From positions 5,394,001-5,458,000 of the forward strand of contig CM114271.1 of NCBI GenBank assembly GCA_050084515.1: a DNA stretch of 64,000 bases, given 5' to 3'. Made by a program: the position numbers and the translations under genes. This stretch comes from Blasia pusilla (taxonomy: Eukaryota). The notes under the pieces are model-generated. The model was not told where the DNA came from, did no database searches, and was given only the letters and a program-made list of their open reading frames with translations. Below are positions 144 to 48,588 of this stretch, in pieces; positions within the stretch are counted from its first letter, which is position 1, and each line of letters starts with the position of its first letter.

Positions 144-664
144 TATCACGACTGTTAGGATAGATCGGTGGGATCTAGCAGAGCGTCTTCATAAGTAGTG
201 GAGGACAGGCCCAAGAGGTCGAGAATGATCTGTTGAGGCCCCGGGAAACCTGAGAGAGCAGGTTTCCCCTTTGTTTCGGCTCATTTAGAGCCATATAGAG
301 AAACTTGCTATTTCGCGTAAGTTTCCATGTTGGGGATAGTTGACTTTCTATTTTTGGTAAGTGGCCCTTGACCTCCTACATCAGGTCAAGAGCCAAGGAG
401 GTGACTTGGGAGCATAGGTTACTATGGAGAGAGCTTGGAAGAGGGGAGGGGTATACCTCAAGGAGAGAGAGCTTGAGAACTCATTCTCTCTTTGTTGAAC
501 CTCTTGGCATGAGGTGACAGAGTTATGGTCCCTTGCCTTGTGAGTGTAACCCAAGCCTCTCATTAGGAGAGTGGGTTTGGTTTGACATGAGAGAGAGAGA
601 GAGAGTGCACATCTTTGAGAGCTATGGTGTGAGATGGTGTAGAGAGAGATTGGATCTTACTTTA
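144..664 (+). repeat. Terminal direct repeat A1
   Basis: Aligns to 9749-10253 with roughly 20-25 substitutions by eye plus small indels. Identity ends after GGATCTTACTTTA. Confidence 0.95.
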
Positions 665-1242
665 CAAAGAGAGAATGAGAGAGTGAGAGAGCTTCATGGG
701 GGAGCTCGCTGGTCACTCGCTGTTTTTGCAGGTTGGGGACCGTATTCCTCGTTCAACGGCTCATGGGAGTGCTCACGGGAGCAAGGGCTGCTTCGATTGT
801 TCTTTGCATTTGCCGATTTTTTGTGTGGAAGAGTGGCGCACGGAAGCGCTGCCCAATTTTTGATAGGGATTGAGTATGGGGGCGGGTTGCCCCATGCCGG
901 TGCTCTCGGGAGCACCATGTAGCTTGCTGATTTATATTTTTATAGGTTTTACATTTTTGTTGGGAGAAATCAGCGTGGAAGCGCTGCCAAATTTTATGTA
1001 GGAGAAAGAGACATTGGGATTTACAACAATCCCTGTCAGTTTTTACTGAAATGTTTGATTATAAATATTTTTTGATGCTGTTGTAGATCGTGAAACTAGG
1101 CACGTTGTGCAACAAATAGTGCGCAATTTGGAGTTGCGAGAAAAAAGTTATGGTCAATCTTGCAAAATTGCTATTGCTAGGCGATTTTTAGGGTTAAATT
1201 GTTCAAATCCTAAACCAGCCGCTACGCCGGCGGCGGCCGTCG

Positions 1243-1339
1243 CCATCATAGTCACCGTCAACGATCCATTTTCAACGGTCAACCGTCACCATCATAGTCA
1301 CCGTCAACGATCCATTTTCAACGGTCAACCGTCACCATC
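1243..1339 (+). repeat. 46-bp tandem duplication in the element leader
   Basis: CCATCATAGTCACCGTCAACGATCCATTTTCAACGGTCAACCGTCA occurs at 1243 and 1289. Confidence 0.9.
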
Positions 1340-2208: not shown

Positions 2209-3720
2209 ATGAGTGATTGAGGGATTACTCATGAGGTTCAAAGTGATCAGGTGAGAGGGGCACGAGGGTCATCACAGAGTCCGTTCAGGACTTTGAGAGG
2301 CGAGGTGGTGAACCCAAGAGTAGCTCTAGAGGTTTTACGCGGAGTGGTGCGAGGTTCCGAGGGTCTCCACGTGAGGGACCATCTCGAACTCCTTCTGTGT
2401 CATCGTCAGATGAGGGGGAGGGTGTAGAGGAGTTTGTGAGCACATCGCCATACATTGTGAGTGGTCCTACTAGTTGGGCGTAGGAGATGGACGACCGGGG
2501 TAGAGTACCGCGTAGGTTTTCAGATGCAGTAGGCACGATTGAGTTGCACGATTTCATAGTAGAGTTTAGGAGTTGGTGCGACTCCCAGTGGGCCAGGAAC
2601 TCTAGAGAGTTGAACCCGTTTACAACATGGAATGGTATATTCCAGCATTTAGACGGGGCGCCCATTGACGATTACCATGAGTTCTCCCAGAGATATGCAC
2701 GTGAGATCGAGGCGTGGAGGCTCTACTATGACCTACATTATGTGTCATGGACGGAACCGTTCCCAGTTGAGGAGGAGGAGTTAGGAGAGGCTACTTCCTC
2801 TTCCACTAGTGACATTTTAGGAGGGGTCACTTGCACGGGAGCAATTGTACCGTCTAGTCGAGTTCATCCCAGGTTCAACCCTGTGGTTGAGTTCTTTGCT
2901 GAGTTGAGGGCGAGCTACCAGGGGATACGGACGGAGAAGTTGCGGAGCATCCACGACTTCCAGAGGCGCCCGGGTGAGAGTTTGCGTGAGGCTTACAATC
3001 GCTTGCGCCGGTTGATCAACATCACTCAGGGGTGACAGAGGCTCAGGCTATCCAATCATGGTACGCGATGCTGGACCGGACTCTGCGAGACACGGGTGCG
3101 GGAGGGGGTGCTTCTTATGAACACCTCCCCTACGTTGAGAGATGTTTTTAGGACCGCCAAGAACATTGAACCCAACTTGGCGGAGGAGAGCGTAGCCACC
3201 ATGGGTTCTGGGCGAGAGCAGTCACAATTATTTGCACCACCTGTGCAGCAACGTGGACTCCGAGATAGATCGATTGTGGCACCACGAGCTCAGGGAGGAT
3301 ACCAGGAGGCCGTGCCACAGAGACCTGCGCCTTCATGTGTGGCTCAACTGCAGCCGTCTAGTATTACTTGTTGGTCATGTGGTGGAGCCCATCATCAGCG
3401 TGATTGCCCTCGTCAGGGTCATGGACGTGTGCCTTAGCATGGAGGAGGAGATGGTGCTGCACCAGGAGGTTATCAGTGTGACTATTGTGAAAGGTTATGG
3501 TCATACACGCGCTAGGTGTTTCGGTTTACATCCTGAGTTACGTCCGGACCGAGGGCCAGAGAGGGCACCAGAGCGATTAGCCGGTCCGGGTGGGCTAGAG
3601 ATCGTGCACCATGTGGTCCCATTGGGGGACGAGGAGCTGGAGTTGCCCGACAGGGCGGTGGAGCTGCCAGTGGAGGAGGTAGAGTACCACAACCTAGACG
3701 CGGCAGAGACGCGGACGTAA
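2209..3720 (+). pseudogene. gag, frameshifted, with two CCHC-type zinc knuckles
   Basis: Gag-like FQRRPGESLREAYNRLRRLI. Knuckle CWSCGGAHHQRDC at 3369-3407 and frameshifted CDYC..GYGHTRARCFGLHPE at about 3477-3535. The start is approximate. Confidence 0.8.
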
Positions 3721-4419
3721 AGGCCGGGATGGTCGCCGATCTGGCAGCAGCTACAGGAGCAGATTGCCGCTATGGCATTGAGGTTACCCGATGCCGGATC
3801 CGTGGCATCGACATCATATGGAGCAGCCAGAGATCTGGAGGATCCTGGTTGGATGTGCGGGGTTGCCCAAATGGAGGCCGCCGCAGTTGTGACACGTGGA
3901 GCAGCCGCAGAGTTGGATCCACAGCGAGGGGAAGCCAGAAAACAGACTAGGCTTCCTCAGTCTTTCACGTTGTCCGAAGCAATGAGGACCCCATCGATGG
4001 GTCCTCATCAAAGTTCCTGGAGAGTTGGTGATGTTGTTGGTGTGCAGGCACGTAGGGCGTTGGGAGGAGCGAGTGCGACGACTCCTATTGTTGATGCTCA
4101 GGAGGGGCATGTGTCGAGCACGTTGTTGGGGGCGGCCACCGTTGTGTACCACACTCCTTTATTTTCTGCTTCCGATGTTATAAGGTTGGGGGTAGGCTCG
4201 CCGAGCCTTTTCGGCTAGCCGCTTCGCTATGTGAGCGCAGAGTTGGAGTTCCTGCATCACGTTCAGAGGTGATTGCAGAGGAGGTGATGGACGTGCCCTT
4301 GGAGCGGATGCTCGGACCGTCCACGTCAGATTCATGGCAGGCTGCGGCTGCTAGGATGGCAAAGATGTCCGCTAGACCCGCGATAGACCATGCCATGGCT
4401 TCTCCTGGTGTTGTGTTGC

Positions 4420-4800
4420 TGGATAACCGAAGAGAGGTCTTCCAGTTGGTGAGTCTTGGAGGTAGAGCTTTTAGTCCGCAGTGCGTCTTGTTGGATTCGA
4501 GAGCGCAACCCCTGATGTTGGGGAAAGCGTCATTCAGAGGATTGGGCTTGACGAGAGCCGATGTGGAGCCTTGTCCATTCCGGATACATACATCCTTGGG
4601 TGGAGCGAGTACCACATAGTATATCACCCGACAGGAGGTCGTGGTGAGGATTCGCCTTGGACATCCTACAGATGAGTCCGTGGTGCGCGCCAAGGCGATA
4701 GTGATTGATGTAGAGTCCTACGACGTCTTGGTTGGTGGAGCTGTGTTATACCCGATGGGTTTTTCCCTGGATTATTGGGAGGAGTCAGCATCCTACAGAC
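4420..4800 (+). pseudogene. Retroviral-type aspartic protease
   Basis: VLLDSRAQ, a D-S-G motif with G>R (D at 4494), and the downstream YDVLVGG motif. One in-frame TAG at 4617. Confidence 0.8.
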
Positions 4801-5207
4801 CAAGATGGCAGTCAGGTGATGGGCGCCTTAGCTCATTACCCGTTCGATTCACAGGTGCAGTGATCGAGCAACGGCCAGGAAAGATGGCGACCTTAGCAGC
4901 ATTTAGCAGTGCCATCACTTGGCCTAGTGATTTGATTGAGGGACATGTGCATGCAAAGGATACTCCCGTTCCTGACATTTCTATAGAGAGGAGTGTTATG
5001 GTAGCTGCATCATTCCGTGGAGGAGAGGTGCCATTGTGGGGCTCGACTGAGGAGCTTCGACAATTGGCAGATGAGCACGTGCAGACCGCGTGGAGCGAGG
5101 CGTTTGCACCGCAGCGTGACGGGTCTGAGGAACCCAAGGTAGCAAGGAGTGCTACGATGACACCCTTGGATACCACACCCATTATGTGGTGTACCCCGGA
5201 GGAGGAT

Positions 5208-6135
5208 ATTCGAGTGTTAGATCTCTTTGGAGGGATTAGCACCGAGTTAGTTGTTGTTTTGCAGGCATGAGTGCGAGTACAGCAATACCTGTATGTGGAG
5301 AGTGATGATGTTGTGAGGCGCATCTCACTACGATATGTGGTGCAGTTACGCCTACGTTTTCCCGACTTATTGTCTACGTCCGCAGTACAGGGGTACCAGA
5401 ATACCCTACCGAGGGATATTTCGTTGTTGGGGGCGCAGGACTTAGAGCGGGTAGGGACCATTGATTTGGTCATTGCCGGTTGGCCATGTCAGGGCCAATT
5501 GAGTGCTGGACGAGGCAGCGGGTTGGCTGACACTCGGTCCAGGTTATTTTGGGAGATGTTGAGGGTCTTACGGTAGTTACAGGAGCACCAGTCTCGTTCT
5601 CCAGCCTATATTCTGGAGAATGTGCCGATCTTAGGAGACTCCAGGTCACGGGTGGTGACGAGTGCTCATCAGGTGCGTTCTTGGATCAGCCCAGCAGTGT
5701 TCTTGGATGCAGCGAGTATAGGTTCTAGAGCCCATCGCCCGCGTCTATGGTGGACCAACTTGGTGCCCCATGCGGTGTTATGGAGGGTGTATGCGAGAGT
5801 GGAGCGCCCCTCCCATTTTTATTGGATTTCATTCTGGATCCAGGTCGTCGATCACAGGCAGTGAGGCACGATGATCGACCACCGTTGACTGTGGTCAACA
5901 GGGTAGGCAGGCCGCGGGCAGCCTTGCCCACGTTTGTTAGTTTTCCCGCTTCCTATGCATACAAGAAGGCTGGTTTTGGCTTGGTTTGGGATGACCAGGT
6001 TCAGCGGTTGGTGGAGCCCAACGCCGACGAGAGAGAGCGAGCGATGGGATTTACCATAAGAGTGACGGCAATACCATCAATGTCAGAGGCATCACGACGC
6101 CATGTCTTGGGTCAGGGGATGGACATGAACTGCAG
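5208..6135 (+). pseudogene. C5 cytosine DNA methyltransferase domain (DNMT3-like, non-permuted) inside pol
   Basis: Motif I RVLDLFGGI, II YLYVE, III DI, IV IDLVIAGWPCQG (PC at 5484-5489), V SRLFWEMLRVL, VI YILENV (5616-5624), VIII AHRPRLWWTNL, IX ERERAMGF, X RRHVLGQGMD. Stops at 5268 and 5574, frameshift near 5820. Confidence 0.93.
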
Positions 6136-6462
6136 CGTCGTATGAGATCGGGACAGATCACAGTGGTTGTGTTGGTGAGCCCCATGCCAACTGAGACGGT
6201 GGAGGCACTGGCTGGGGGCGAGACCCGAGGAGATCTACGCACCGGGGGAGATCAGGAGAGACACCCTTGGACTTCTTGGGATGTTTTGTAGGTACGCAAG
6301 GAGATGATTGCCACAACATTGAGCGTGGTTTCGGGCACTGCACGTGGAGGAGATCAGAGTTTGCAGTTGGCTGCAGGAGAGCGGCCGAGTGTTTTTGTCC
6401 GAGACAGGGTTGCACCATAGCAACCACCGATACCCGCACCGGAGAGTCCGACCGTAGTCACG

Positions 6463-7880
6463 ATGGAGACTTGGGAGCCAGATATGGGCCCTAAGTTGAC
6501 AGGAGGAGAGCGGCGCCGAATACATCAGTTCCTCAAGAGTTATAGGAGCTGCTTTGCATTTAGCATGGAGGATTTGGGTACGCTGAAGGGATCGGGGATC
6601 CGCATTGAGTTGTCGAGTGATACGCCGATCTTCCAACAACCCTACAAGTATAGTGATATGGAGAGGGCTCTGATTCAGAGTAGGAGCCAGGACTTGGTAG
6701 GAGCTCGACTACTGGAGATGTCGCATGGGGAGTATGCATCTGCCATTGTCATGCTCGCCAAGAAGGATGTGCATGGCAACTGGACGGATAGGCGGATGTG
6801 TGGGGATTACCGACCTATCAATCGGCAGACAAAGTCCGATAGGTATGCCATGCCCACCCCTGAGGAGATATTTGATGCGATTGGTCACGCAAAGATCTTC
6901 AGTTCATTGGATTTGGGAGCCGGATACCATCAGCTGCCTATCAGATTGGAGGACAGGCAAAAGACGGCATTTTGGGGCATCGATCCTCACGGGAAGGATT
7001 GTTTGTACCAGTGGCGGTTCGTACCATTTGGGTTAAAGAACGCCCCAGTTGAGTTTCAGATGGTCATGGATAGGATCTTGGCTGGTCTGGATTTTTCTAG
7101 GTGTTATATTGATGACATTGTAGTCTTTAGCGCCACGGTTGAGGAGCATGAGCGACATCTAGAGGAGGTGTTTCAACGATTGCAATTACATGGGCTGAAG
7201 CTACATCCAAGCAAGTGCAAGTTCTTCTACGACCAGATTGAGTATTTGGATCATACGATATACCCAGGGGGCCTTGGTGTTCAGGAGACGAAGGTAGAGG
7301 CTATCCCACGCATTCCACGCCCTACAGATGTGAGCCGTGTTCGCGCATTCATGGGATTGGAGAACTTGTATCGGCGATACGTCAAGGGATTGAGTTCGAT
7401 TGCAAAGCCTCTGACCTTGCTGACCAAGGTGGATCACGAGTGACACTGGGGGGATGAGCAGGAGCGAGAATTTCAGTTGCTCAAGGACAGGTTGACGTCC
7501 GTGCCCATCTTGAGGAGACCGATCAAGGGGCATCCTTTCCAGATGCACACAGATTGGAGCACGTTGGGGCTTGGAGCGGTGCTCACCCAACATGATGATG
7601 AGGGTAGAGAGTTCATGGTGGCTTACGCTAGCCGCTCGAACAACACTCTAGAGGCAAAGTACATCTCATATGAGGGTGAAGTGCATTTCAGGTGTTACTT
7701 ATTCGGCAACCCTTTTACCATCATCACTGATCATCAACCAATGAAGTGGTTGATGGAGTCCGACAAGCTTACAAGAAAGCTTGCGAGATGGGCTCTGTTG
7801 TTGCAGGAGTATGATTTTCAGGTGGTACATAGACTGGGGACGCTCAACCAGGATGAGATGGGTTGGTCGTAACCCATGCC
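6463..7880 (+). pseudogene. Reverse transcriptase and RNase H
   Basis: RMCGDYRPIN, LDLGAGYHQL, PFGLKNAP, YIDD (7105-7116). RNase H motifs HTDWS, GAVLTQ, VAYASR and TDH. In-frame TGA at 7441. Confidence 0.97.
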
Positions 7881-8229
7881 CAGTCCGAGATGCGATTGGA
7901 GCTCGATGGCATGGAGAGAGTGATGAGGAGTCGGTGCCAGGATGGCATCGCCACCCATTTAGGCATGTTGGCTATGGAGAGCCAGAGTGTGGAGACCGAT
8001 GGCGCAGGTTAGTGAGAGTCCTGGATCTCGAGGCCGGTGAGGACACAACAAGTGGCCGAGATATTCATGATGATGGAGTAGTCTTGGAGTACCTTTTTTG
8101 GGCGTTCCAGCACCTTGTGGATGCTAGAGAGCGGGATCGGATCCTCAAAGGGACAAACGGTTCCGTTGGGAGGGGACACATGTTTTGAGGGTTTGGGAGG
8201 ATGGCATAGTACACGTGAGCGGCATCCTT

Positions 8230-9330
8230 CGAGAGAGCACAGTAGTCATGGAGTTGGGTCACTTTGGGGTGAAGCGGACGATGTGCCTTGCTCAAGATTC
8301 AGATTGGTGGCAAGGTTTGCAGATTGACGTTCAACAGTTTGTTTCCAGGTGCATGGTGTGTGATCGGGTCCGAGCATCATTCAATGCTCCGACTCCACAG
8401 TTGCATCCATTACCGCTCATGGGCTTAGGGTATAGATGGAGTTTGGATTTTGCAGGACCTTTGCCTTTGACGGAGCATCACAGTCGTTATGTGTTGGTGA
8501 TGATCGAGCACTTCTCGAAGTGGATCGAGTTGGTTGCATTGCCTGACAAAGTGAGTGAGGGAGTAGCTTATGCCTTCCTTGACAAAGTGCTGAGTCATAT
8601 GGCGCATTGGCTGAGATGTTGACAGACCAAGGTACCGAGTTTTGTGGTGAGTTCCAAGCCTTGTGTGATTAGGCGCTGATCGACCACCGCACGACTTCGC
8701 GAGATCATCCCGAGGCGGATGGATTAGCGGATAGAGTTGTGCAGACAATGAAGAGGGATTTATGCAAGTATAGCTTGCAGAGAGGTCACCTAGGAGATTG
8801 GGACCTCCAGTTGCCATGGTTGGCGATGGGATACAGATTCAAAAGGCATGCATCCTTAGCGTCTTTTTCACCGTACTTGCTACTTTATGGCCGAGAGCCA
8901 GATTTACCTACGGCCATTCATCGAGATGCTGGTGAGGTGCTGGACCTTGATGACCCAGATAGATGCGAGCATGTTCTCAGAGGGCTGAGTTGTTTCGGAG
9001 AGTGATGCCCATGGCGTTCGAGAACTTGGCGATTGCGCAACATCGAGATACGTTGAGGAATGCGACTATTCGGGATGGTGGTTATCGACCAACTATCTGG
9101 AGGTTTCATCAAGGAGATTATGTCTACTTGCAGCAAACGGCACCAACGACGTTGGATGTAACTGCATGGCGCACTATCCTGAGAGTGCGTGACGTTTTGC
9201 CATCCGGTGTTCTCTTGCTGGAGGGACGCGATGGTATGGTATGGAAGGACCATGTGCGTAATTATGCGCCATATCACCTTCCTAACATTGATGGTACAGT
9301 AGATTCAAGCTTAGCAGTAGTTCCTACGGC
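8230..9330 (+). pseudogene. DDE integrase
   Basis: GHFG...CMVC zinc motif, WSLDFAGPLP, TDQGTEF (frameshifted), HPEADGLADR (third catalytic E appears as D), FSPYLLLYGREP. Confidence 0.93.
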
Positions 9331-9334
9331 CACG

Positions 9335-9439
9335 ATGCTAGTCTGTGATGGATGTTCGAGAGGTTGGCATATGGCATGTTTGACGCCACCTCTCACTAGG
9401 GTTCTTCGGGGACGATGGATGTGTCCCAGATGTACATAG
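9335..9439 (+). pseudogene. PHD finger at the integrase C-terminus (first CxxC missing)
   Basis: MLVCDGCSRGWHMACLTPPLTRVLRGRWMCPRC matches the C-terminal two-thirds of the C4HC3 PHD consensus. Confidence 0.85.
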
Positions 9440-9609
9440 AGGAGATACTAGGTAGGTTTTTCCAAATTTTTCTGTGACATGGATGATAGGAAGAAAACTA
9501 ACGATGGGGCCACATGAACACCCGACCTTTATGCTCTTTCCTAGAGATGTATGTTGTGGTAGGTAGTTATAGATGGCTATCTGGAGTTAAAGGGACCTAA
9601 CCACCAGCT

Positions 9610-9619
9610 AGGGGGGCGA
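9610..9619 (+). other. Polypurine tract (PPT)
   Basis: AGGGGGGCGA immediately before repeat B1. The same motif occurs at 46330. Confidence 0.7.
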
Positions 9620-9746
9620 TTAGAGATATTTTGATACTTCTCGCCTCTGTGTATGGATGCCATGAGTTAGCATGGGATCGTGTGTGTTTGTGTGTGTGTT
9701 CGATAACAACGATGTATATTTTGTAGCGATGTGTATGCGCATGATA
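9620..9746 (+). repeat. Direct repeat B1 (127 bp)
   Basis: Near-identical to 10254-10380 and ends GCGCATGATA. Confidence 0.95.
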
Positions 9747-9748
9747 AC

Positions 9749-10380
9749 TATCACAACTGTTAGGATAGATCGGTGGGATCTAGCAGAGCGTCTTCATAAG
9801 TAGTGGAGGACAGGCCCAAGAGGTCGAGAATGACTTGTTGAGGCCGTGGGAAACCTGAGAGAGCAAGTATCCCCTTCGTTTCGGCTCATTTGGAGCCATA
9901 TAGAGAAACTTACTATTTCACGTAAGTTTCCATGTTAGGGATAGTTGACTTTTTATTTTTGGTAAGTGGCCCTTGACCTCCTACATCAGGTCAAGAGCCA
10001 AGGAGGTGACTTGGGAGCATAGGTTACTATGGAGAGAGCTTGGAAGAGGGGAGGGGTATACCTCAAAGAGAGAGAGCTTGAGAACTCATTCTCTCTTTGT
10101 TGAACCTCTTGGCATGAGGCGACGAAATTATGGTCCCTTGCCTTGTGAGTGTAACCCAAGCCTCTCATTAGGAGAGTGGGTTTGGTTTGATATGAGAGAG
10201 AGAGTGCACACCTTTGAGAGCTATGATGTAGAGAGAGATTGGATCTTACTTTATTAGAGATATTTTGGTACTTCTCGCCTCTGTGTATGGATGCCATGAG
10301 TTAGCTTGGGATCGTGTGTGTTTGTGTGTGTGTTCGATGACAGCGATGTATATTGTGTAGCGATGTGTATGCGCATGACA
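9749..10380 (+). repeat. A2 (9749-10253) plus B2 (10254-10380), the right end of the element
   Basis: A2 matches 144-664 and B2 matches 9620-9746. Ends GCGCATGACA. Confidence 0.95.
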
Positions 10381-10825: not shown

Positions 10826-10854
10826 ATCATGCATATATAATGACTACCCTTCAA

Positions 10855-11806
10855 GAACAGGAGTTGAGTTATTTTAAAGAAGCTGCAAGTAAAGTTGAAT
10901 GGATTGAAGCTATGGAGGAAGAGCTTGCTACATTAAGAGATCAATAGACATGTGAGCTGGTTGATGTTCCTTCCGGTAAGGAAGCTATTGGTTGCAAATG
11001 GGTTTATAAAATCAAACGCAATCAAGATGATATAATTAATAGATATAAAGCGATATTGGTGGCTAAGGGCTATGCACAATAATATGGCATCGATTATGAG
11101 GAAACATTTAGCCCTGTTGCAAAGATGGCGACTACGAGATCAATGATTGTAGTTGTAGTAAGTAAGAAGTGGAGATTACATCACATGGACGTCAAGAATG
11201 CCTTCTTGAATGGAGACCTATATGAGGAGGTATATATGACTTAAACACTTGGATACGAGCATCCCAAGTTTCCATTTCGCGTATGCAGATTGAAGAAAGC
11301 TCTATACGGGCTCAAACAAGCTCCAATAGCTTGGTATGGCAAGATTACATACGTCCTACAAGAGTTAGGTTTTAGGATGTGTGATTCTGACTCCTCGTTA
11401 TATGTCTTGAGAGGACAAGATCATACGATTATCATTATGTTGTATGTTGACAATCTCTTGATTACTAGGAGTAATGAAGAAATGGTACAATAAGTCAAGA
11501 TGAAGTTACAAGCAGAATTTGATATGAAGGACTTGGGAGAACTCAAGTACTTCCTTGGTGTTGAATTTATCAAGGTAGTAGCATCAAGCTTGCTAATAAT
11601 CTTGTGTTTCATGCTCGTACAAAGCATGTTGATGTGCACTATCATTTTATCAAAGAGAAAGTGCTTGCCGGAGAAATTGATCTTGTGTATATAGGTACAA
11701 ATTAGCAAATTGTTGATATCTTTACAAAGGCATTGTCTAGAGATAAGTTTGAGATGTTTAGAAATGATTTAGGCGTTAGAGATATCGATATGAGTTTGAG
11801 GGGAAG
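10855..11806 (+). mobile_element. Ty1/copia RT-RNase H remnant with internal deletion, ending in a PPT
   Basis: [70 protein letters not shown], then a jump to HARTKHVDVHYHFIKE and DIFTKAL. PPT GAGGGGAAG at about 11798-11806 is followed by LTR-like TATTGAA. Confidence 0.92.
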
Positions 11807-14800
11807 TATTGAAGATTGAGTTACAATCAAGCTCATGAAATACTTGAACTGCTACATTTGGTACTCACACAAAGTAGGGAAGCTTAATCTTGGTTAGTCA
11901 GTTAAGCGCGATTATCTTAACTAGGGTTAGTTAATCATAATTAGTCTAACTCGAGACTATGGTTAAGGTTAGGATTAGGATTGCTTGTACATACCCTATA
12001 TAATTAAGAAGGGGAACAACCTCACTTATTCTCTCATTGCAAATTTTGTTCTCCATGGTGGTATATGAGTGTGAGAGCCGTTTCCTACCAGCTATGCTTC
12101 TTTAGCAATTTTCCACAACTCATTCTTAAGGTGATAGACTGAACAATCTGGGTCATGGCGTCAAATGTAGAGAAAGAGAAATGCCTAAAAGTTCATTACG
12201 TCCAAGGTGAGTGAGGATTCCTTACGTAGTACGAAGGCAATGAAGGTCGAGTGTCAAACAAACATAGAATGCAACGTGCAATTTTCTAAGTAGAGAAACT
12301 GGTAGGATCTTTCATATTTCATGAATAAATCTCCACAGGGCTTTCTATAAATAATTTCAAGGTTGGAGTGTGGAAAATATCCTAGTTAGATCTTTTAGAT
12401 ATGTATCGAAAACAAATTTTTCATTGAGGCAAGCCACGTACAGAGAGAAGAAGGAAAGGGAAAGGGATGAGGCAGTTGAATGGAAGGAAGTGATTGCAAT
12501 TGCGCAAATTTTGCATTGTATAGAAGAAACTAGCGCCAACTTGGATGTGAGTTTAGCCCGGTGACGATGTTATGCAATCTACCACTAGATAGTCCCGATG
12601 GAATCTCAACTTACCTTTAAGACCATGGTTGTAGCTCAATAGACTTTTACACACCTTCACTTCCAATTGCACCCTTTGCCACCAACTATGAATCTGCTCA
12701 TAGGTCACCACTCCAATTCCCAACCACCGATTGAAGAGGAAAGACCGTAATGAAAAAAGAACGCAAAAAAGTTTGTGAAATTGAATTTGAGCAAGTCTAA
12801 AAGTGTCCACCAAAAAGTCTAACAATATGCAGAAAAGAATGTGAACAAAATTTTTTGCAATTTAGAACACCACGACCCAATTGCAACCAATTGAGAGTAA
12901 GGTAAAGAAACGAATGCTTTCATGAGTTTGCATTTACAAAACGAGTTCGGGTTTACATAATCAGAAAAATGAGCTAGAGGAAATTCAGAAATGACCTATT
13001 CATGAATTCGACATGGAAAGGGAAGCTCAATGGAACACGTAAGTCCCAACAAATGAGCTCCAAATCTCAGCCAAATCTCAAAAACATGATCATCAGTCTT
13101 GAGCAAGTTTCAAATAAAAATCAGCATGCACCAAACTTAGGTAACATGAGTGTGATAGCATTCATACAAGAGAATTTTGAAGTGGATATTTAGTTCCATC
13201 ACTTGCAACATAATCTAGGACCTATGCGCATTATATCACAACATTGTTCTGGTACAAGTTGAGCAGATGCATTTACCATGTCCGTTGACATCCAACGGTT
13301 CACCATCGACCACATAGGCTCTGAAGGACACCTAGATAGGGTCTTCAACTAGAGAATATAAGAAGGGATGTAGCTACCAAAAAGAATAGAAACAAAAGGA
13401 TAAAAAAATAGAGGCACGAGATCAAAGAGATTAAACTGAAGGCCACTTGTATGCGCCAAAAATATCACTTTATACATTGTTATTGCACATTGGGCTCCCA
13501 TAAGAAAATGTTTACATCAACATTGGTGCTACATTACATGGTTTCTATGATTAGGAAGAATTAAATTTCACTTCGGACATTGTGGCATTGGATTGTACGA
13601 TGAGCTCTCATGAAACAAGGTCAACATGGAAACTTTGAAAAGAAATCTTCATGCAACACATATTCTCATCTTGTGCAAGACAAGAATGCAACTACACAAT
13701 GTCACCCTTTACTTTGCTACCAGTATTGAGTAGCCCTAATACGTGATACCAATTTTTTTCCTTTTTACTACAATGGATGGCCATCTACTTGCGAGGAAAA
13801 AAAAGGTTGGATGAATCACTCATGAGACAATGAATTCTGTATGTTAAAGCCCGTCCCCATGGAGTCACGGCGGGAGTCCCTCTCCGACGGTCCTACCAGT
13901 TGCCAGGTAGGATCACAAACGGTTTCGATGTTTGATTATAAAAGAATTTAAAAGACAACCGGCTACCGTTCTTTGATTTTCCAAGGATCGTCCCTAGTAT
14001 TTCTTCGCCGTAAATTTCACGGCGCGGAAGGACAAGCGACCCGCCTATGGTCCGTGGATTGATAGTCGTCGATTAAGCATCGGAAGGATCCTACGACCAT
14101 GGAATTGCTCCATGGGGACCTACTCTTAGTGTTGAAGACGAAGCAGTTCTCTTTCGCCAATTTTGTTGTTAGTGTGTACCCTAGCTTTGGCTCTTTTGAG
14201 CTCACTTGAAAGCTTTTTTTTATCTTATTCTAGATTGCAGATAAATTTTGTGGTACAAGTTTGATTGCTAAGTCAAAAGAAGTGACGATAACATAGTCAT
14301 AAGGGCCATAAAGAGACATATCGCAAGTCGAGAGATTATTGTTGTAGCATACATACTCAAAAACCTACTTGGTTTGCATCCCTACTAGTACTAAATTTCC
14401 TGCGTGATTCATTGGGCTACATTTGCAAATGCAGCCCTTTTAATAAGTGCGAACTTCCGTGCACCTACCTAAGGACTCCATTCCACACAATGGCAAAATG
14501 TCAAAGAAGAGGATTTGGTTTCTTTCCGACAGTAGAGACTTAAAGGTTCAAATAGAGGATTTGGTTTCTTTTCTTTAGTGGAGATACAAATAGTATTTTT
14601 GGAATGGATAATCCTAGTAGTTGGTATGGATAGCTTCAGTCGTAGGAGCATGATAAACAAAATTTGAGAAAATCTACTCCAACCGTCAAATTCTGTATAA
14701 ATATAATGGTACAAATTTTCTTTGAAAAGAACTTGTGGGGCGACAATGCAAGCATTTATGCCCATGTTAACGCACTTAAGTGAATGTAGATAGGATCCCA

Positions 14801-15331
14801 TGCTCATTCAACATGAAGATTTACATTTTCAGATATTAACTATGGTAACTCAAATTGATAAGACTCAAATTCACGTGTATTATTTTGACTTCTTGGGCTC
14901 GTTTGTTACCATATCACTTATGCTTACTTCATAATTTGAAGTTAACCCTTGGAACTTCAAAATTTTAAGATCCACATATTTCATCTATGGTTTTTAGTGA
15001 AGCCATACAAAATAAAATCATGACGTGGTACTTTCTCAATTAAAATGTTCACATTTTGGAAAAACTTATCTTATAACTCAACTTGCCCACCATTCATTGT
15101 GACACTGACACATTGCTACAAATATAAGAGTCTAGTAACTAAACTTTGTGTTTGGCCAAATGAATAAACTGATTTATGTGAAGGCCATGGGACTTGAAAT
15201 TAAAACACTAGACACCTAGCAGAAAAGGGGCGTCCAAAGAAGCTAAATGTCATAAACACTCTACTTTAGCAAGCACTTACCATTGTAGAATTCTACATGT
15301 TTCTACCATACTATCAGCGCCCTCAGAAGGG

Positions 15332-16012
15332 TTCGAGAAAGTCACTTGCAGCTTTCTTGAAGATAGCAGCTTGCCTCATTGTTAAGTTCATTTGAACTAC
15401 AATATGTACATTGCCAGCTTCTTGGGTGTCAAAAGTTTCCTGGTTCTGACTCCTAACTCTGATGAGCAACATGACTAGTTGACATTGGGGCAATGAGGCA
15501 ACAAGCTTTTCAGTCGATCCTCCATTCAGTTGGTGAAAGCATACTTGCTTGCTCAATTTGGAGTAAAAGTTTCATTCAGATTGCTTAGCTTTCACAATGC
15601 TTAATGAAAGGTAATGCTTATCGACACCACGACAAGAAACTAATACCCATGTCCTCATTGAGGTATCTTCGAGAAAGTCTTCGAGAAAGTCACTTGCAGC
15701 TTTCTTGAAGATAGCAGCTTGCCTCATTGTTAAGTTCATTTGAACTACAATATGTACATTGCCAGCTTCTTGGGTGTCAAAACTTTCCTGGTTCTGACTC
15801 CTAACTCTGATGAGCAACATGACTAGTTGACATTGAGGCAATGAGGCAACAAGCTTTTCAGTCGATCCTCCATTCAGTTGGTGAAAGCATACTTGCTTGC
15901 TCAATTTGGAGTAAAAGTTTCATTCAGATTGCTTAGCTTTCACAATGCTTAATGAAAGGTAATGCTTATCGACACCACGACAAGAAACTAATACCCATGT
16001 CCTCATTGAGGT
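15332..16012. repeat. 333-bp near-perfect tandem duplication
   Basis: 15332-15664 matches 15680-16012 with about 2 substitutions. A 15-bp filler lies between the copies. Confidence 0.95.
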
Positions 16013-19638: not shown

Positions 19639-20699
19639 CGCTATCACCTGGGAGCAGTTGTGCTTCCCCACTTTTAATTGCACTCTAAGCCCTACAAGAT
19701 CAAAGAAAAAGGTTGACACTAACGAGATTGACATCAACAGTTGAGAGCATTCTACTTGGTGCTTAAGCATCGTTGTGAGTTCGTACATTGGCTGCACTTC
19801 CCCTGGAGGTTCGGTTAACGCGATCCAGTTAATGTTTCTGCTCTATTTCAATTTCCCCTTGACCAGCTCATGATTTCGGTAGTCTAGATGGAGCCCCTTA
19901 TGGACAGGCTAGCTGAATTAATATTGGCATCAAAACACTTGGACTCTGACAGATCTTCCATCGATGTGCAAAGATTACCATCTGTTACCGATCCAGGGAC
20001 CTCCAGTGCGCCAAATATGTAGGTGCCATCTCAAACATCACTCACAGATAGACCCTGCCCTAGCATATCGTGTAGACAGAGATGGCTAGAGTTGGAGAAC
20101 CTAAGTTCGTTTAATGCAGAATTTGTGAAAGCAGGAAACCCCTCCACATGCTCAAACCCTGACAAGTCATTCTGGGATATCTCACCAATAATGGCAGAAA
20201 AGGAAAATAATATCACCAAGCTCCTGGCATTCAGTTAAAATTCAGCTACTAAAGTGAGAAGGGCTCAAGAATTTTTAAATTTTTTTTTTAAAATACATAC
20301 CAATGAGTTATCAGCTCAACACCTCTAAGGACTCTTTCAAATTCTGCATAAGTGCGAACTTCTGGGACACATTCTGCTGGGCACCTGATTTCCGCGTCTG
20401 CCACTCGAGCTTCCTCTGCCTGACTAGACAACAACCCAATCGAAAGTAAATAAAACTATTTGAGAAAACACAATCTAATCGACTTCCTGCAACTCACTCA
20501 GGAAACTCTCAAACTTGGGGGGAACACCAAAACCAACCCAGCTATCAGCAAAGGCGCTATTTAGAAATAGCTAGCATTCCAAAAATGCACTTATTCCTCC
20601 AGTATGGGAGGCGAATCACGTGCAATCGGAACTCGTACATCACATCACAGTGGAAAGAGCAGAGACCCATTTGGCAGACTTGCTTCAAAAGTAACTCAA

Positions 20700-21435
20700 T
20701 CCAGAATGAAAGCGGCAGAGGAAACTGAATTCATCGCAGCCAATTTGGCACTTCAGATCACAACAAGAGTAGAGATGGACCCAGTGTGACATCTGCTTCC
20801 AGGGCGTCTCAATTCAAGATAGGAGCTGCAGAGGAAACTGAATTCACTGCAGCTAACTTGGCACATCAGATCACAAGAACACGACTAGAGTTGGAAGTAA
20901 TTTGACACGGCTGCGTCCGGCGTGGATCGATTGAGAATTGAACCTGAGCCTTTCCAGAGCGAACGGAATCCAAAACAGCGAAAAAAGCAGAGGGAACTGA
21001 ATTCACTGCAGCCAAAAATTCCGCACATCAAGCAGAGCAGATAGTGGGACAATTGAGAATGGAAGCTGCAAAGGAGACTGAGTTCACTGCAGCCGAATAT
21101 TCCGCACATCAAGGAGAGCGGATCAGAGCATAGCAGAGAGTGGGATAACTGAAAATGCAAGCTGCAAAGGAGACTGGATTCACTGCAGCCAAAAATTCCG
21201 CACATCAAGCAGAGCAGAGACTGGTACAATTCAGAATGGAAGCTGCAGAGTAAACTGAAATCGCTGTAGCCAGAAATTCGGCACATGGAGCAGAGCAGAG
21301 AGTGGGACAATTAAGAATGGAAACTGCAGAGGAAACTGAAACCGCTGCAGACAAAATTCGGCACATGGAGCAGAGTAGAATAGATCGGACAGGGGCTCCA
21401 TTGAGAATGGAAGCTGCACAAGAAACTGAACTAGC
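20700..21435. repeat. Degenerate minisatellite, about 81-96 bp units
   Basis: Repeated GAATGGAAGCTGCAGAGGAAACTGAATTCACTGCAGCCAAAAATTCCGCACATCAAGCAGAGCAG core, with anchors near 21063, 21159, 21240, 21321 and 21411. Confidence 0.88.
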
Positions 21436-22166
21436 TGAATGCCCAGAACAACAGCCACCGGTCCATCCACGACGGCAACTTCATAGACCCCCGACACAAT
21501 GGGACTCAAGGCCACGAAAATCACCTCCCTACAGTATCTTGGCGTCGCAGACTCTCATTCGAATGCAGCATCCGGTCGATTCCGCTCACCTCCATCCTCC
21601 TGAAAACCCTCTCCCCCCCTTCCATCCCTGAGCTCCACCAGTACACCGGCGACGAGGAATCCATCCACAGCTCCGGAGACGCCGGCGATCCAGTACTCCA
21701 CCAGAGAGTGATCTTCGTATGACCGGAAGCGCGCCAATGGGGCGTCTCAAATTGATGTCCATAGTCCCGGACGTCTTTTCCCATATATTTTTTATGGTTT
21801 TACGGGCAGGTTAGGTGCTCGGTGTGGAAAGGAAAGAGGTAGAAGCTAGCCTCTTATGACCGGACATAGAGACATACATCCTATTTCTATTGTAGGCAGC
21901 GGGTCTCCACAGCTTTGCAATCAATGGACTTAAGCAACGGGCTCATGATATAGGAGATGTGAGCGCTAGTAGCCCACTTGGTGGTAGTGACGTCTCTCTG
22001 GGTGTTGTTGGCATTGTTTATGCAGTGGGTGAGTTTGGTTGATAGGAGGGGTGCCCCCTTTTCTGTTTCCGGGCCGATTGTGGCCTTCGAGTATTTGACT
22101 CTTTGAGTCCCCCCCTTTTTTGTATTTCGGATGGGTTTTCCATCACCTTCTTTTATTGCCAAGTAA

Positions 22167-43859: not shown

Positions 43860-45125
43860 TCAAGACAAATGGAACAGGGGAGAATGTATGTCTGCTAAGG
43901 AGCATGGACAGATTGGATGCACTAGTGCAAGAAACTCATCCTCATGCAAAGGTACGGGGCTATTCTCATCAAGATATTCCGGAAAAGGCGCTTCAGGATC
44001 CACGTTGCTTCTCTTTGCGAAGTGAAAGTTTGCGAATTCCATCCCCGATTTGTAGTTTGAAATGCGTTCTTTGAGTTGCCACAACAGAAATCGATCATTT
44101 GGCACACGCATGGTAAAAGGTTCACCGAAATAGGATAGGAACTTTCCAGTTCTATCAGGTAACATATGCGAAAGTCGCAGAGTCCGTACAGCACTCCTAA
44201 CCTTCTGTGCAGGAATCTCTTCCGCCTTCAAATCCTCGGTCACATCTCTAAGCTTATCTTTGGAACTATAGATTTTTATGATTCTATGGTCTACTACCCC
44301 GGCAATTTGAAGCCATCGTGACGGAGGGAGACGCATACGCGATTTAAGTTCCACGATCACATCGGCGACAGTGCAATCCCCGGACATCCTCAAATTGTAG
44401 TTCCTAGCCCGCACAGAGCTAAAACTGCGGAACGAAATTCTCAAATCCTTAATTTTCCCATCCAGGGTTGTACTTCTTACGAGATCTACAAGAAGCGTTG
44501 GCTTTCTGATAGCCAACTCCTCAAAACCGGGAGCGTTCACAATTTGCTTGAGATTACAACCAATAAACTCCTTGCACCTTTCAAACAGAGAAGCATCATA
44601 AAGCACAGCATGCTCCAGGATATTGAGCGAATTTTCAACCGTAAGCATGTCCCCTAGAACAGGGCTGCAAATTCTGGCCAATTGTGGTACCTCATACTTG
44701 TGGCAGGCAGCGAGCACCTCCAATCCAAACTTCTCTATGTCCTCACGGCTCAAACTTCCCGTATACAGCAGCCTCAAGAAAGCTCTGAATGCTCCCGTCG
44801 TCATGTCCTCCACCTTCACCACAGACGTAGTCTGCTCCAGCATCTTGTTCTGGAACATAGCCCTAAACACAGGCGAGACGCTCGCCAATATGCACCTGTG
44901 CGCCGGCGTCCTATCGAGCTCCGACTCGAACGTTATGTCCGAATGCAGGCCGTCCTCTAACATCTGCTCCACGGTCGATCGAAAATGCTCTCTATCCAGC
45001 TGCTCCACAGCCAGATCCGCCTGCTTCCGTTTCAATCCTCTCTCCATTTTCCCCTCTTGTTGCTGCCAGCCTCCTTGCGGCCTCTCCTCCTCCCTCCTCC
45101 ACTCCCAATTACTCCACGACTTCAT
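43860..45125 (-). CDS. BTB/POZ-BACK-like protein fused to a USP7/UBP12-type C-terminal ubiquitin-like region, 421 aa, intronless
   Basis: BTB motifs SDITF...PAHRCILASVSPVFRAMF...FRAFLRLLYTG...ACHKYEV. C-terminal TVADVIVELK, HRIIKIY, LKAEEIP, FGEPF, PEYL resemble the UBP12/13 C-terminus as I recall it. Confidence 0.88.
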   Translation of the reverse strand: MKSWSNWEWRREEERPQGGWQQQEGKMERGLKRKQADLAVEQLDREHFRSTVEQMLEDGLHSDITFESELDRTPAHRCILASVSPVFRAMFQNKMLEQTTSVVKVEDMTTGAFRAFLRLLYTGSLSREDIEKFGLEVLAACHKYEVPQLARICSPVLGDMLTVENSLNILEHAVLYDASLFERCKEFIGCNLKQIVNAPGFEELAIRKPTLLVDLVRSTTLDGKIKDLRISFRSFSSVRARNYNLRMSGDCTVADVIVELKSRMRLPPSRWLQIAGVVDHRIIKIYSSKDKLRDVTEDLKAEEIPAQKVRSAVRTLRLSHMLPDRTGKFLSYFGEPFTMRVPNDRFLLWQLKERISNYKSGMEFANFHFAKRSNVDPEAPFPEYLDENSPVPLHEDEFLALVHPICPCSLADIHSPLFHLS

Positions 45126-46329
45126 AAAATTCCGCTTCTCCTCCCCCTTCTAACCTCCTCAATTCCCTCCCCCTCTCAACCACCTTCCTTCCTTCCCTCC
45201 CCTACCAATTCTCCTCCTCCTCCTCCTCCTTCTCTCCGTTCCTTAAAGAATTGAACGCGCACCACCTCTCTTCGCTGTTCCTCCACACGAATTCCACTGT
45301 CATTTCAGAGCCGCTGCGATCGAAGAAACCAAAAGATCGAGAAAGCGTGAATACTACGAGAGCCTCTCCTCTTGCTTCCTTTCGTCTCCTCTCTTCGGCC
45401 CTTTCTGTTGGCCCCGGCCCGGCCGGGCCCGGCCCGGCCCGACTCTTGTGTCTGTCCGTCTGTCGATTCCCACCATCCAGCCTCATCTAAAGATCTTAAA
45501 AGGTCCAGAATTAGCGTCTCTTGGGACGGGGACCCGTGCCTCGGCGCGGGCCCAGATCCGACGGCCCACGGCGCTCGATGCAGCATCGGATGCAGGTTGG
45601 TGGGGTCGGTCGGCACTGAGACCTGGTATGGTAGGTCGAAAGTTGACCCGCCACGGGTTGTCCTCGAAGAAACGCACGCAGGCTCAGGATTTACACTCGC
45701 CCGAAACCGGCTGACTGGCCGGTAATTTCTCACGATGAAAGTTCCCGGGGACCGATCTGTTGGTGTCGTCGTAAGTACGCTGCCCCACCGAGCATCCCCA
45801 CCTTGTTGTTGCCTTTATCGACGGACGATCTCCCTCTCCGTCCGACGGAGGTCCGTTTATTGAGGAAGATCGTCCCTCTCCGTCGACTCCTGTGTCATTT
45901 ACATCATACGTATCCGCGCTCCCCGCGTACATACGACAAAAATATCAGTGGACTCCGTCCACCCCTTGCCGGACGCTGTTCGTGTGATATATGGACGGGT
46001 ACTAGGATTCCTACCGGATCGTCTCACACTTTAGGACCGAGTTCTCACGGAGGAGAAAGCATTGTTCGACAAAGATTTTACTCTAACGATGCCCGGATGA
46101 AAATTCCCCCGTAAGGAACTGCCCCACGACGAAATCTTGCTCGTTGACGTCATCACGACTGCCCGGTGGCAGGGTGAAAGTTTACGGGATGTTTTCCATG
46201 TAGGAGGGCGACTCAAAGGCCTCAATTGATTTGCAAGGAGGGTTTAGGGATTCTTGATTTGAATGCTACCTAAAATATTCGCCACATGCGAATCACGAAT
46301 CCAATCATCATACACGTGGCTAACTAGTT

Positions 46330-48083
46330 AGGGGGGCGAGTTGTGGTACACTTGTGTTTGTGGATGTTCTCGTCTATGTTATGTATGTATGTGAGTATGG
46401 TATGTAAGCGATGTATGTTATATGACGATGTGGATTCGTACGACATCTATCATGACCATACGGATTAGGTCGTAGAGTATAATGTGCTAGTAGAGGCCAT
46501 ACCTTATGTAGGGCCGTAGTGTCTAGCTAAAGATGCGGTTTCATACATAGGGTTGGGGGTTACTCCCTTGAGGATGACTTTTCCAGTAGGGCCCGCTCTT
46601 AGGTTGGAGGATATAGTGTGGAGTGCACTCAAAGAACAGTTAGTTCTTTGAATTGAGCCTGTTGCGTTGGGAGTTAGCCTTGGTAGTGAATAGAGTTCTT
46701 GGCTATGGTGGTTCCCGCAAGCTTCAACCTGGATTCTCGACCCTCATGTCGCGACCCTCATGACCAAACGAGTGTCAAGCGGAACATCAGAACATTAGCG
46801 GGCTCACGCTAAGATGGTTTGCGCGTTGGAGTAATCTCGAAGAAGAGACAAGAGACGAGACGCAAGCGAGGCTTCGCGTTTCAGATGTTATGGTCGCGAA
46901 TGAGAAACCTGGACCAAACGCGGAACAAGACTTGAAAGGAGTTGAGTCTAGGAAGTGGGTTGCCAAAGGAAGAATCCGGATTTGGAACGCCACTAGCATT
47001 TGAGAGTTTCCGACTGTATTTATAACCATAAATTTTAGCGTTGAGATGCGTTTGGATTAAACAAGGATGCATTGGAAGGCTTATGGAAAGCCGGTTCAAA
47101 CGCACTAAAGATCTCTGCAAACGCATAAGCAGTGGCTGAGAAACAACCCACAAACGACTGTAAGTAGAGTCGGGTTGAGGGCCACAATGAAGGGCCCGAC
47201 CCTCCTTTTCCAAAGGGGGGAGTTTATTGGAGAATCCTAGAAGTACTAGTAAGGGGGAATGTCTCCGAGAGTGCTTGGAACTCGAACCCCACTTTGGGCG
47301 CCATGGGGCGGCTCAAAGGCATGGAACGGATCCAGAGTTTGGGGTTGGGTTGGAAAACCTGAACCAAGTCTACGGAGGCGATTTTAGACATCCCTCTTGG
47401 ATTCCACCCCGTGACTCAATTACTTGGGTCTCGGTTTGGAACTCACACGAGGTCCGTTGAACAGTTGGGATCGCTAGGCACGCAAGTGCCGTTTTAGGTT
47501 CATGGACTAATCAGGAAGTCTATTCCAAGTCTTGAAGGACTTGCCATGTTTTGGAAACGAGGAATTAATGAAAGTTGAGCTTGATGAGATGCCGAGTTGA
47601 GAACTTGGTGGGTTGGAACGCTGATTGGCCCGGACCCGACTAACGAGAGTGCGTGTTTGGTGCAGATTGGTGATGAGATCGTGTCCTACTGAATGTACGT
47701 TTCGCAACACTAAATATTGACGTTCAAGGAGAGTAGGGGCGCGACAAGTAAGGCCCGCTCTTAGGTTGGAGGATATAGTGTGGAGTGCACTCAAAGAATA
47801 GTTAGTTCTTTGAGTTGAGCTTGTTGCGTTGGGAGTTAGCCTTGGTAGTGAGTAGAGCTTTTGGCTATGGTGGTTCCCGCAAGCTTCGACCTGGATTCTC
47901 CCATCGTGGAGTGGGTTTGGCTCGATTGTATGTGATTCTATACGTGTTTTATGATAGTAGGTCTTTCACGGATTTCAATTGTGGTGCACTTGTGTTTGTG
48001 GATGCTCTCGTCTATGTTATGTATGTATGTGAGTATGGTATGTCTTCGATGTATGTTGTATGACGATGTGGATTCGCACGACA
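46330..48083 (+). mobile_element. 3' end of a second split-repeat retroelement: PPT-B1'-A'-B2'
   Basis: AGGGGGGCGAG (46330-46340). A 105-bp B1' at 46341-46445 matches B2' at 47979-48083. A' starts TATCATGAC at 46448 after a 2-nt spacer. Confidence 0.8.
46747..47746. mobile_element. Solo-LTR-like 1.0-kb insertion
   Basis: Termini TGTCGCG...CGCGACA form a 7-bp inverted repeat. There is a TATTTATAA box near 47018. Its last 52 bp recur at 48084-48135. Confidence 0.7.
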
Positions 48084-48588
48084 GTACGCTTCGCAATACT
48101 AAAAATTGACATTCAAGAGGAGTAGGCACACAACATTCTCTCTCCATAGTCATTGCTTATTTTCGACAATGCATCTCGATGATCTTACAACGCGCACAAA
48201 CTTTGGCCATTATACATCAAGCTAAAGTAGTTGGGACCTCTCATTTTGTTGTCCATTCATGTTTCACTAACCATTATTATTATTGTTAGATTTGTTTCAA
48301 ACCATTAATGGTGTAGCTCATTGAATTGTTTTTCATGTCGACTTATTTCCATTTTACTTTTGCATCTCATTTCGTTTTTATTGACTCATTCCTTTCTTGA
48401 AATATTACTACCTTTTTATTTTTAAAATAAATAGAGATCTATACGTAAATTTATAATAAGTACGGACTTGCCCACCTAAGCTTTCTTTGGGTGTAGGTAG
48501 CGAATGGCTCGACGACAACTGTCCGAGGGCGTCGAGAAACCCGGCCGGGCGGGCTACTTAGAGCGGGTCGTTGCACTCACAAACCGGG

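Follow-up and report, generated by a model that had tools for sequence, protein, structure and literature searches.

Two diverged retroelements lie in the stretch of the Blasia pusilla genome analysed here (GenBank assembly GCA_050084515.1, contig CM114271.1, positions 5,394,001 to 5,458,000 of the forward strand; this whole stretch of 64,000 nucleotides is called the window). The first to be considered is a remnant at 46330-48083, a member of what we call family 2; the other, at 144-10380, belongs to family 1. Both carry split terminal repeats, named A and B and numbered in their order along a full copy, and we propose that both are Ty3/Gypsy elements whose integrase site lies inside the long terminal repeat (LTR). 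The remnant is made up as follows.

46330..46339 (+): polypurine tract (PPT) AGGGGGGCGA, read from the sequence and found at the same position in relatives; the remnant starts about 10 nt further upstream
46340..46445 (+): B1, 106 nt, first part of the putative reverse-transcribed LTR; ends in the CA of the integrase site
46446..46447 (+): 2-nt spacer TC (mostly GC in the family), centre of the palindromic integrase attachment (att) site CAYGACA-GC-TGTCAYG
46448..46738 (+): A2 positions 1-291; starts with TATCA (a decayed TGTCA); contains a TATA-like box and the putative self-primer site 46642-46652
46739..46746 (+): 8-nt filler GACCCTCA, a copy of the start of the foreign LTR, directly visible in the sequence
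46747..47746 (+): 1000-bp solo LTR, TGTCGCGACC...GCGCGACA, which belongs to an ordinary family of other descent and is not part of the element
47747..47977 (+): A2 positions 138-368; the first 154 nt duplicate 46585-46738; putative self-primer site 47804-47814; ends in TTTCA
47978..48083 (+): B2, joined to A at what would be the cDNA-end joint; ends in CACGACA, the right end of the element
48084..48135 (+): 3' flank, in which an older member of the foreign LTR family survives with its final ~50 nt (match of 86% over 43 nt, E 3e-11)

A preliminary description of the window had reported a 105-bp B on both sides of A. The repeat stands (46341-46445 and 47979-48083, 93% identical, 106 nt with its first base), but the ~1.5 kb between its copies is not simply A: the real A measures 368 bp, and here A positions 1-291 are followed by the filler, the 1000-bp solo LTR and A positions 138-368. 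The junction TACGACA-TC-TATCATGAC at 46439-46456 is present as described, and the PPT is identical in both elements (46330-46339 and 9610-9619). The B ends are indeed related between the families in their 3' halves (76% over 66 nt, E 2e-8), with short matches only elsewhere. The coding part and A1, thought to be merely out of view, are deleted instead, as 45300-46340 matches none of the other loci compared and nothing family-like occurs upstream of ~46320. This, together with the foreign solo LTR inside A, identifies the window copy as the deleted, interrupted 3' end of a full insertion, cut at the PPT. Since its 3' flank is the last ~50 nt of that foreign LTR, the element had inserted into an older copy of it.

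A search of the 390 Mb genome with 46330-46584 gave 1905 candidates, of which 40 were scored, and 10 kb upstream was fetched for 19 matches. The expectation that relatives start with A alone and encode a DNA methyltransferase (DNMT) and a PHD was borne out: a whole A1 lies 8-9 kb upstream in 10 of the 19 (a partial one in 3, none of their own within the span in 6), and in all nine copies whose right A1 edge was readable it runs into CTCAAA..., which is the site of primer binding (PBS), and in none into B. Full copies have the order A-PBS-gag/DNMT/RT/RH/DDE-integrase/PHD-PPT-B-GC-A-B (RT, reverse transcriptase; RH, RNase H), with TG...CA ends and 4-bp target-site duplications (TSDs). Among nine copies with both ends the TSD was perfect in five, agreed at three of four bases in three, and gave no match in one. 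Two whole equal LTRs abutting PBS and PPT are absent, the 5' end being A alone and the 3' end B-GC-A-B. Pattern counts on both strands gave at least 915 B-nn-A junctions, at least 716 joints of A to B (A/B joints) and at least 724 PPT-B starts, all lower bounds owing to sequence decay; 30 A/B joints taken in genome order comprised 23 B-nn-A-B, 5 solo A-B (4 with a perfect TSD) and 2 truncated forms. The layout is kept with a 4-bp TSD both in this genome and in metagenome contigs, in agreement with the earlier idea that the split structure is functional.

An ordinary element with A-B as its LTR, its extra B and missing 5' B having arisen by recombination or assembly error, would account for the solo A-B copies, which resemble normal TG...CA solo LTRs with TSDs. 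That reading is refuted by the junction counts (716 A/B, 915 B-nn-A) and we give it virtually no weight. None of the ten whole A1 repeats has a B match beside it, the same layout recurs in family 1 and in other data sets, and the att joint is present in raw RNA reads. The sole apparent A-B pair (L008/L027), considered as a normal LTR pair, turned out to be a duplicated segment with the same 3' flank.

Pfam searches of 12 family-2 open reading frames (ORFs) recovered a weak gag, DNMT (PF00145), RT, RNase H, an H2C2+rve integrase and PHD, with four ORFs giving no match. The integrase matches both rve and H2C2 with D,D,E visible, and the best match among solved structures is Ty3 Gag-Pol (E 1e-31). 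The order protease-RT-RH-integrase with a DDE integrase is found, the protease match occurring only in the metagenome copy L218 and below cut-off. The DNMT lies upstream of RT in families 1 and 2, and its PC and EN(V) motifs are near-invariant among relatives. There was no Pfam match to a tyrosine recombinase in the 12 family-2 ORFs, 7 family-1 ORFs or two long L218 ORFs, and the relatives thus belong neither to that class nor, with no B beside the ten whole A1, to elements with normal LTR pairs. No chromodomain match was found; PHD stands in that place.

Judged from its sequence, the B-nn-A junction appears to be the integrase site, with TGTCA and GACA as the true ends of the element. Among 38 family-2 junctions 31 have TGTCA and 5 have TATCA, the commonest form being GACA-GC-TGTCA, with spacers GC (18), AC (10), GT (6) and others (4). 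TATCA, which the preliminary description took for a conserved left end, is methylation decay of TGTCA: TATCA and the AC and GT spacers are the expected CHG deamination products of CAGCTG; the GT spacer is also present in transcribed copies and in two distant families. In the site CAYGACA-G(C/T)-TGTCAYG the two outer ends face each other as a nearly perfect palindrome. The same palindrome occurs in family 1 and in the metagenome contigs L145, L190 (TSD TCTC), L197 (TSD AAGG), L182 (a further family) and L218, whose DNMT is only 47% identical. In a first screen of 80 metagenome loci, most of them short or broken, PPT-B-nn-A was found downstream of the match in three; eight metagenome contigs with a PPT-B end lacking A were left uncounted, as short-read assembly could collapse B-A-B. 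Further families with a PPT, a different B and the same palindrome are seen at G000:C1:20088113-20088248 and L182:16400-17070. To judge by how DDE integrases work, a staggered cut of the att site after each CA would leave two processed ends, each with an overhang of 2 nt.

The inner att site is altered in length in 10 of 100 copies. A1 was found in seven of ten copies chosen for such scars; all seven start with an intact TGTCATG and five have a perfect TSD, which argues that the inner scars arise after reverse transcription, either from cutting of the unused site or from fragility of the palindrome. Scarred inner sites in copies with intact outer ends (L094, L098, L105, L107, L113-L115, L118, L119) seem concentrated in a single B subfamily, and several of them have much the same form, shorter by 1 nt.

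A1 is directly followed by bases complementary to a site within A, ~30 nt behind a TATA-like box. The pairing spans 11-12 nt in six of nine family-2 copies (9, 6 and 6 nt in the rest) and 15 nt in family 1, while none of 3000 random windows per family reaches 11. Of the metagenome copies, L218 has a 16-nt pairing made up of a third, unrelated sequence; the pairing spans 16 nt in L197, 9 in L145 and 0 in L190, whose A1 has lost the site. This complementarity points to self-priming as in Tf1/Tcn1. Given a PBS that adjoins A on the right and a PPT that adjoins B on the left, ordinary reverse transcription would give [B-GC-A]-internal-[B-GC-A]. The reverse-transcribed LTR would then be B-GC-A, with the palindromic integrase site inside it, and the integrated form would correspond to a B-GC-A-ended molecule whose left B has been shifted to the opposite end. 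At window 46627-46652 and L218:8827-8854 the self-primer is immediately preceded by its own inverted copy, giving a hairpin in the 3' copy carried by the RNA that could hide the second primer sequence.

How B2 is acquired can be followed in DNA and RNA. In 49 copies compared at six inherited variant sites, variants were shared by both B in 39 cases and confined to B1 in 1 and to B2 in 3; the B1-B2 distance within a copy is 0.036 vs 0.052 between copies (permutation p=1e-4), and CpG/CHG decay sites are mostly unshared between B1 and B2. Because inherited variants are common to both B of one copy, B2 is a copy of B1, renewed each cycle. Three RNA runs from one study, chosen by species label and read to 6-12% each, were compared with L258, a copy that has no internal repeats. 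They gave 4585-5143 reads per run, covering all 30 bins, with >90% on one strand, called sense under the usual stranded protocol. Summed over the runs, 310 sense reads cross B-GC-A and 3 cross A/B (40 weaker RNA joints were not displayed), a joint that does appear in DNA contigs. B2 is absent from the bulk of the RNA, and the element is still transcribed. Joints 944-7415, 1026-2035 and 330-428 of L258 mark internally deleted derivatives transcribed in all three runs. A signal at L258:9385, where many molecules seemed to begin, was rejected as an RNA end, being probably clipping at the variant TATA region (loose ends at 9352).

The content of the A/B joint is informative. Eight of the first 100 joints are length variants (+GA in 3, +A in 2, and +TA, +CTCA, the PBS start, and -1 in one each); three joints contain a whole or nearly whole PPT, 28 contain +GA, and that of L190 has filler plus CGA. 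The A1/PBS edge shows none in 38 (two chance matches dropped). The 28 +GA copies are spread over all common B haplotypes, like 52 comparison copies, and 5 of the 28 have a +GA nearest neighbour where 9.6 are expected. Since PPT and PBS leftovers are scattered across subfamilies without clustering, the A/B joint is newly made each cycle and its variants are not inherited. In families 1 and 2 and in L218, A and PPT both end in A, so the precision of the joint may come from microhomology of 1 nt or from a jump of RT.

These data bear on a PAT/Ngaro-like route, in which the transcript would extend into B2, both junctions would be RNA-templated and the split repeats would rebuild the ends. PAT-like and Ngaro elements have the same drawing, A1...B1-A2-B2 split direct repeats, and a circular intermediate has been proposed for them (PMC7192593). 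Most A/B joints are identical, as that route would have it, and the rare read-through RNA (three sense reads) could be the packaged one. We nevertheless hold it to be very improbable: A/B is nearly absent from RNA, its variants are not inherited, PBS and PPT bound B-GC-A exactly, a TSD is present and no tyrosine recombinase was found in the ORFs scanned. Unlike PAT/Ngaro, the element has a DDE integrase, TG...CA ends, a 4-bp TSD, a PPT and a PBS, and a B2 that is not RNA-templated; it is not a PAT/Ngaro element, and the likeness is convergent.

We propose, at a rough probability of 0.58, that this is a Ty3/Gypsy retrotransposon of the streptophyte Gypsy-DNMT3 lineage with the integrase site inside its LTR, whose cDNA ends are joined to each other and which is then opened internally. 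RNA would start in A1, cross B-GC-A and end in A2, the crossing and the near-absence of A/B2 being observed and the exact start and end presumed. To go by the complementarity, its first 11-16 nt would pair with the PBS that follows A1 and start minus-strand synthesis, as happens in Tf1, and the PPT would prime the plus strand, giving a linear cDNA [B-GC-A]-PBS-internal-PPT-[B-GC-A]. The primer-defined ends would be joined A to B, by host end-joining or an end-to-end jump of RT, into a two-LTR circle; here the new joint is observed and the circle postulated. The DDE integrase would then cut staggered around the GC of the PBS-side palindrome, leaving two CA-3' ends, and insertion with a 4-bp duplication would produce A-internal-PPT-B-GC-A-B, whose ends and TSD are those observed. 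That the joint forms before integration, in a circle, rather than after it is favoured to the same modest degree, and the model suggests that the circular copy is the normal route into the genome. An internal att site with a joint made anew each cycle, which the circle model shares with the two alternatives that follow, is on their combined weight highly probable.

Several observations weigh against the circle. Two equal sites in a circle predict both permutations, whereas 507 standard pattern matches and 1 truly mirrored copy were seen. This ~500:1 site bias is unexplained, as a symmetric circle gives no account of it. The mirror-image copy (L082/L085) reads A-B-GC-A-PBS-internal-PPT-B between two aagt duplications and could itself stem from two recombination steps; it is the only true one among four matches to B-GC-A-PBS, the other three being irregular joints with A2 extending into PBS and leader. 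The 3' ends of L081, L083 and L084 have the PBS and 94-160 nt of leader between A2 and B, or between A2 and an inverted A. The length variation of A/B (8/100) is no higher than that of att (10/100) and only ~2-3x the background in A (mean 3.3% per 9-nt window; 38/339 windows at 8% or more). Indel rate alone was therefore dropped as proof of end-joining, the att site and some A windows varying as much, and it is the content of the variants that carries the argument. Also, ~92% of A/B joints are precise, cleaner than sloppy end-joining suggests. Extrachromosomal DNA was not seen, nor did the three RNA runs resolve where the transcript starts.

A rival route has the same priming and internal site and no circle. 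The left att would be cut on linear cDNA, the 106-bp B and the long piece would be held together and both inserted, and the host would join A to B in the chromosome. Such a route explains a joint that is new each cycle equally well; its left att would have a free end only ~106 bp away, a possible reason for the 500:1 bias, and the aberrant joints of L081 (A2-PBS-160 nt leader-B) and L083 (A2-PBS-101 nt-A-B) resemble break repair templated by A1. It requires, however, that a 106-bp fragment be retained in the intasome and that chromosomal break repair be precise in ~92% of cases, and no precedent was found in the literature searched; we consider it a serious but clearly less probable explanation, at about one chance in four.

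Alternatively, both att sites might be cut, so that a long piece A-internal-PPT-B and a short piece A-B insert alone or rejoin, the standard form being one outcome. Copies of each structure exist. PPT-B ends that stop at B make up ~9% (55 matches, 20 of the first 30 genuine, corrected for 56% pattern catch, over 724), and a perfect TSD flanks 8 of the 14 A-internal-PPT-B copies with A1 found (19 fetched); solo A-B accounts for 5 of 30 joints, 4 with a perfect TSD, and the outer left end is intact in 7/7 copies with a scarred inner site. Yet the short forms would also arise from ordinary recombination between repeats, B with B giving A-internal-PPT-B and A with A the solo form, and the bias to the standard form stays unexplained, which makes this route improbable in our judgement. 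For the same reason one-LTR and solo A-B forms were discarded as proof of circles.

The layout itself had been reported a single time, so that its kind is barely described. For KnitGypsy-Dnmt3 of Klebsormidium nitens, the legend of Fig. 4c in de Mendoza et al. 2018 (PMC5890265) gives a DIRS-like repeat arrangement with Gypsy domains, and that of Fig. 1 gives the DIRS arrangement as A-coding-B-A-B. Its Gypsy Pol with a C5 DNMT ahead of RT and its A-coding-B-A-B repeats are both found here, where the domain upstream of RT is likewise a C5 DNMT. Over 255 aa the family-2 DNMT shares 40% identity with K. nitens KFL_009030040, which has DNMT-RT-RH-IN and, from its domains, is probably KnitGypsy-Dnmt3. 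The accessible parts of the 2018 account, including a keyword search of three supplements, mention no PPT, PBS, att, TSD, mechanism or land plant; here, unlike there, the families are high-copy, transcribed, carried by a land plant and equipped with PHD. What is new is the candidate self-priming site, the proposed B-GC-A LTR, the internal att and the joint remade each cycle. An internal att with self-priming and end-joining was not found in the papers searched (subscription journals, Repbase reports and bioRxiv supplements lay outside the search), and 'KnitGypsy' appears in a single paper among those searchable, subscription journals again being outside. 'Streptophytes (Gypsy-DNMT3)' is mentioned in passing in a 2026 preprint (10.64898/2026.05.21.726589).

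DNMT relatives are named from Marchantia, Calypogeia and Sphagnum, and RT-integrase relatives also from Riccia, Closterium and Klebsormidium. In an RT tree from a quick search (36 rows; a short one was left out), families 1 and 2 group with Marchantia and Calypogeia at an SH-aLRT of 99. The link to Closterium and the K. nitens DNMT row is weak, its fork having an SH-aLRT of 85 and a warning of long branches. RT groups apart from the chromodomain-bearing rows in this tree, which lacks a named Tcn1 reference. Tf1/Sushi and Tcn1 are self-priming Ty3/Gypsy elements with no tRNA PBS and a PBS complementary to their own LTR (PMC6317226), and Tf1 cDNA keeps PBS and PPT tails (PMC11042837). The elements described here share the lack of a tRNA PBS, the PBS complementary to their own LTR and the PBS/PPT leftovers. 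Tf1/Sushi and Tcn1 differ in having a chromodomain and a pair of whole LTRs with the integrase sites at their ends, whereas here no chromodomain was matched, RT lies apart and the integrase site would be internal.

HIV integrase can cut the palindrome of 2-LTR circles (PMC1905944), and retroviral circles, whose abutted palindromic ends are cut internally by integrase, can feed integration (PMC1905944, PMC4372172). For HIV, palindrome and end-to-end joint are one and the same, and the route is a side route (same sources). Here, by contrast, the palindrome belongs to the encoded sequence of the LTR and does not coincide with the joint; it contains a spacer of 2 nt, and it sets the ends of all copies examined. 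At the circle junctions of IS3/IS30-type elements a DDE enzyme acts on abutted inverted ends a few bases apart; those are DNA transposons without reverse transcription, whose spacer comes from the donor flank, whereas here it is encoded by the element. A circle-precursor route was once proposed for retroviruses and then set aside.

The family-1 element has the same domains as family 2, and its relatives have the same ends; its parts in the window are as follows.

144..664 (+): A1, with the putative self-primer site at 480-494
665..679 (+): PBS CAAAGAGAGAATGAG, complementary to 480-494
2484..9439 (+): decayed coding region with weak gag, DNMT (~5274-5990), RT, integrase and PHD
9610..10380 (+): 3' end, with PPT 9610-9619, B1 9620-9746, spacer, A2 9749-10253 and B2 10254-10380

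Nineteen family-1 junctions, selected by likeness to a TATCA copy, have TGTCA in 11, TATCA in 7 and TGTTA in 1. Window 1-143 and 10381-10830 match 1209-1800, so the element is embedded in the leader region of an older family-1 copy; the family-2 copy L011 is likewise found within a family-1 leader. Over ~6.8 kb, family 2 shares 78% identity with metagenome contig elements (L197 and L190 vs L039) and only ~71% with family 1 of the same genome, which may reflect old lineage sorting or horizontal transfer.

The foreign LTR family is high-copy and unrelated to the A/B element. Three of seven other copies are followed by TGGTATCAGAGC, presumably a tRNA-Met-type PBS, and at least two of the seven have perfect 5-bp duplications. 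The solo LTR in the remnant (window 46585-47900) is flanked by a duplication of 154 bp in place of one of 5 bp, and has a right end that is perfect and a self-templated 8-nt left filler; it looks like a one-ended integration completed by repair. Elsewhere in the window, a 429-aa ORF at 43860-45149 (-), starting ~1.2 kb from the remnant, encodes what looks like a BTB/POZ protein. A Copia-like RT fragment, recognised by eye, follows the family-1 element at 10830-12120, and related sequence flanks L006, L013 and L019. Positions 15327-15974 hold a 300-nt direct repeat (99%), and 20681-21437 a degenerate array of 81-96-nt repeats.

Integrase-bearing retroelements are taught to integrate from linear cDNA with primer-set ends. 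The thousands of pattern matches in two abundant families speak for an internal site and for a joint that is formed afresh in every cycle, and the old question of circles as integration precursors becomes testable in a transcribed element with protein relatives in Marchantia. We think it slightly more probable than its opposite that these elements represent an old streptophyte clade of integrase retrotransposons in which integration was uncoupled from the ends made by reverse transcription, with a circle-junction-like att inside U3 and normal entry through an end-joined two-LTR circle. If so, a possible gain would be tolerance of the ragged, primer-tailed ends left by self-priming, and the DIRS-like split repeats would be convergent products of circular integration by a DDE enzyme. 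Our reading would also account for the oddity left in the 2018 figure legend (PMC5890265). Surveys that require a matched LTR pair and a TSD are expected to miss or misfile such elements, and the REXdb set was built with criteria of this type (PMC6317226). If they were so missed, a large source of DNA methyltransferases borne by transposable elements in bryophytes would stay hidden.
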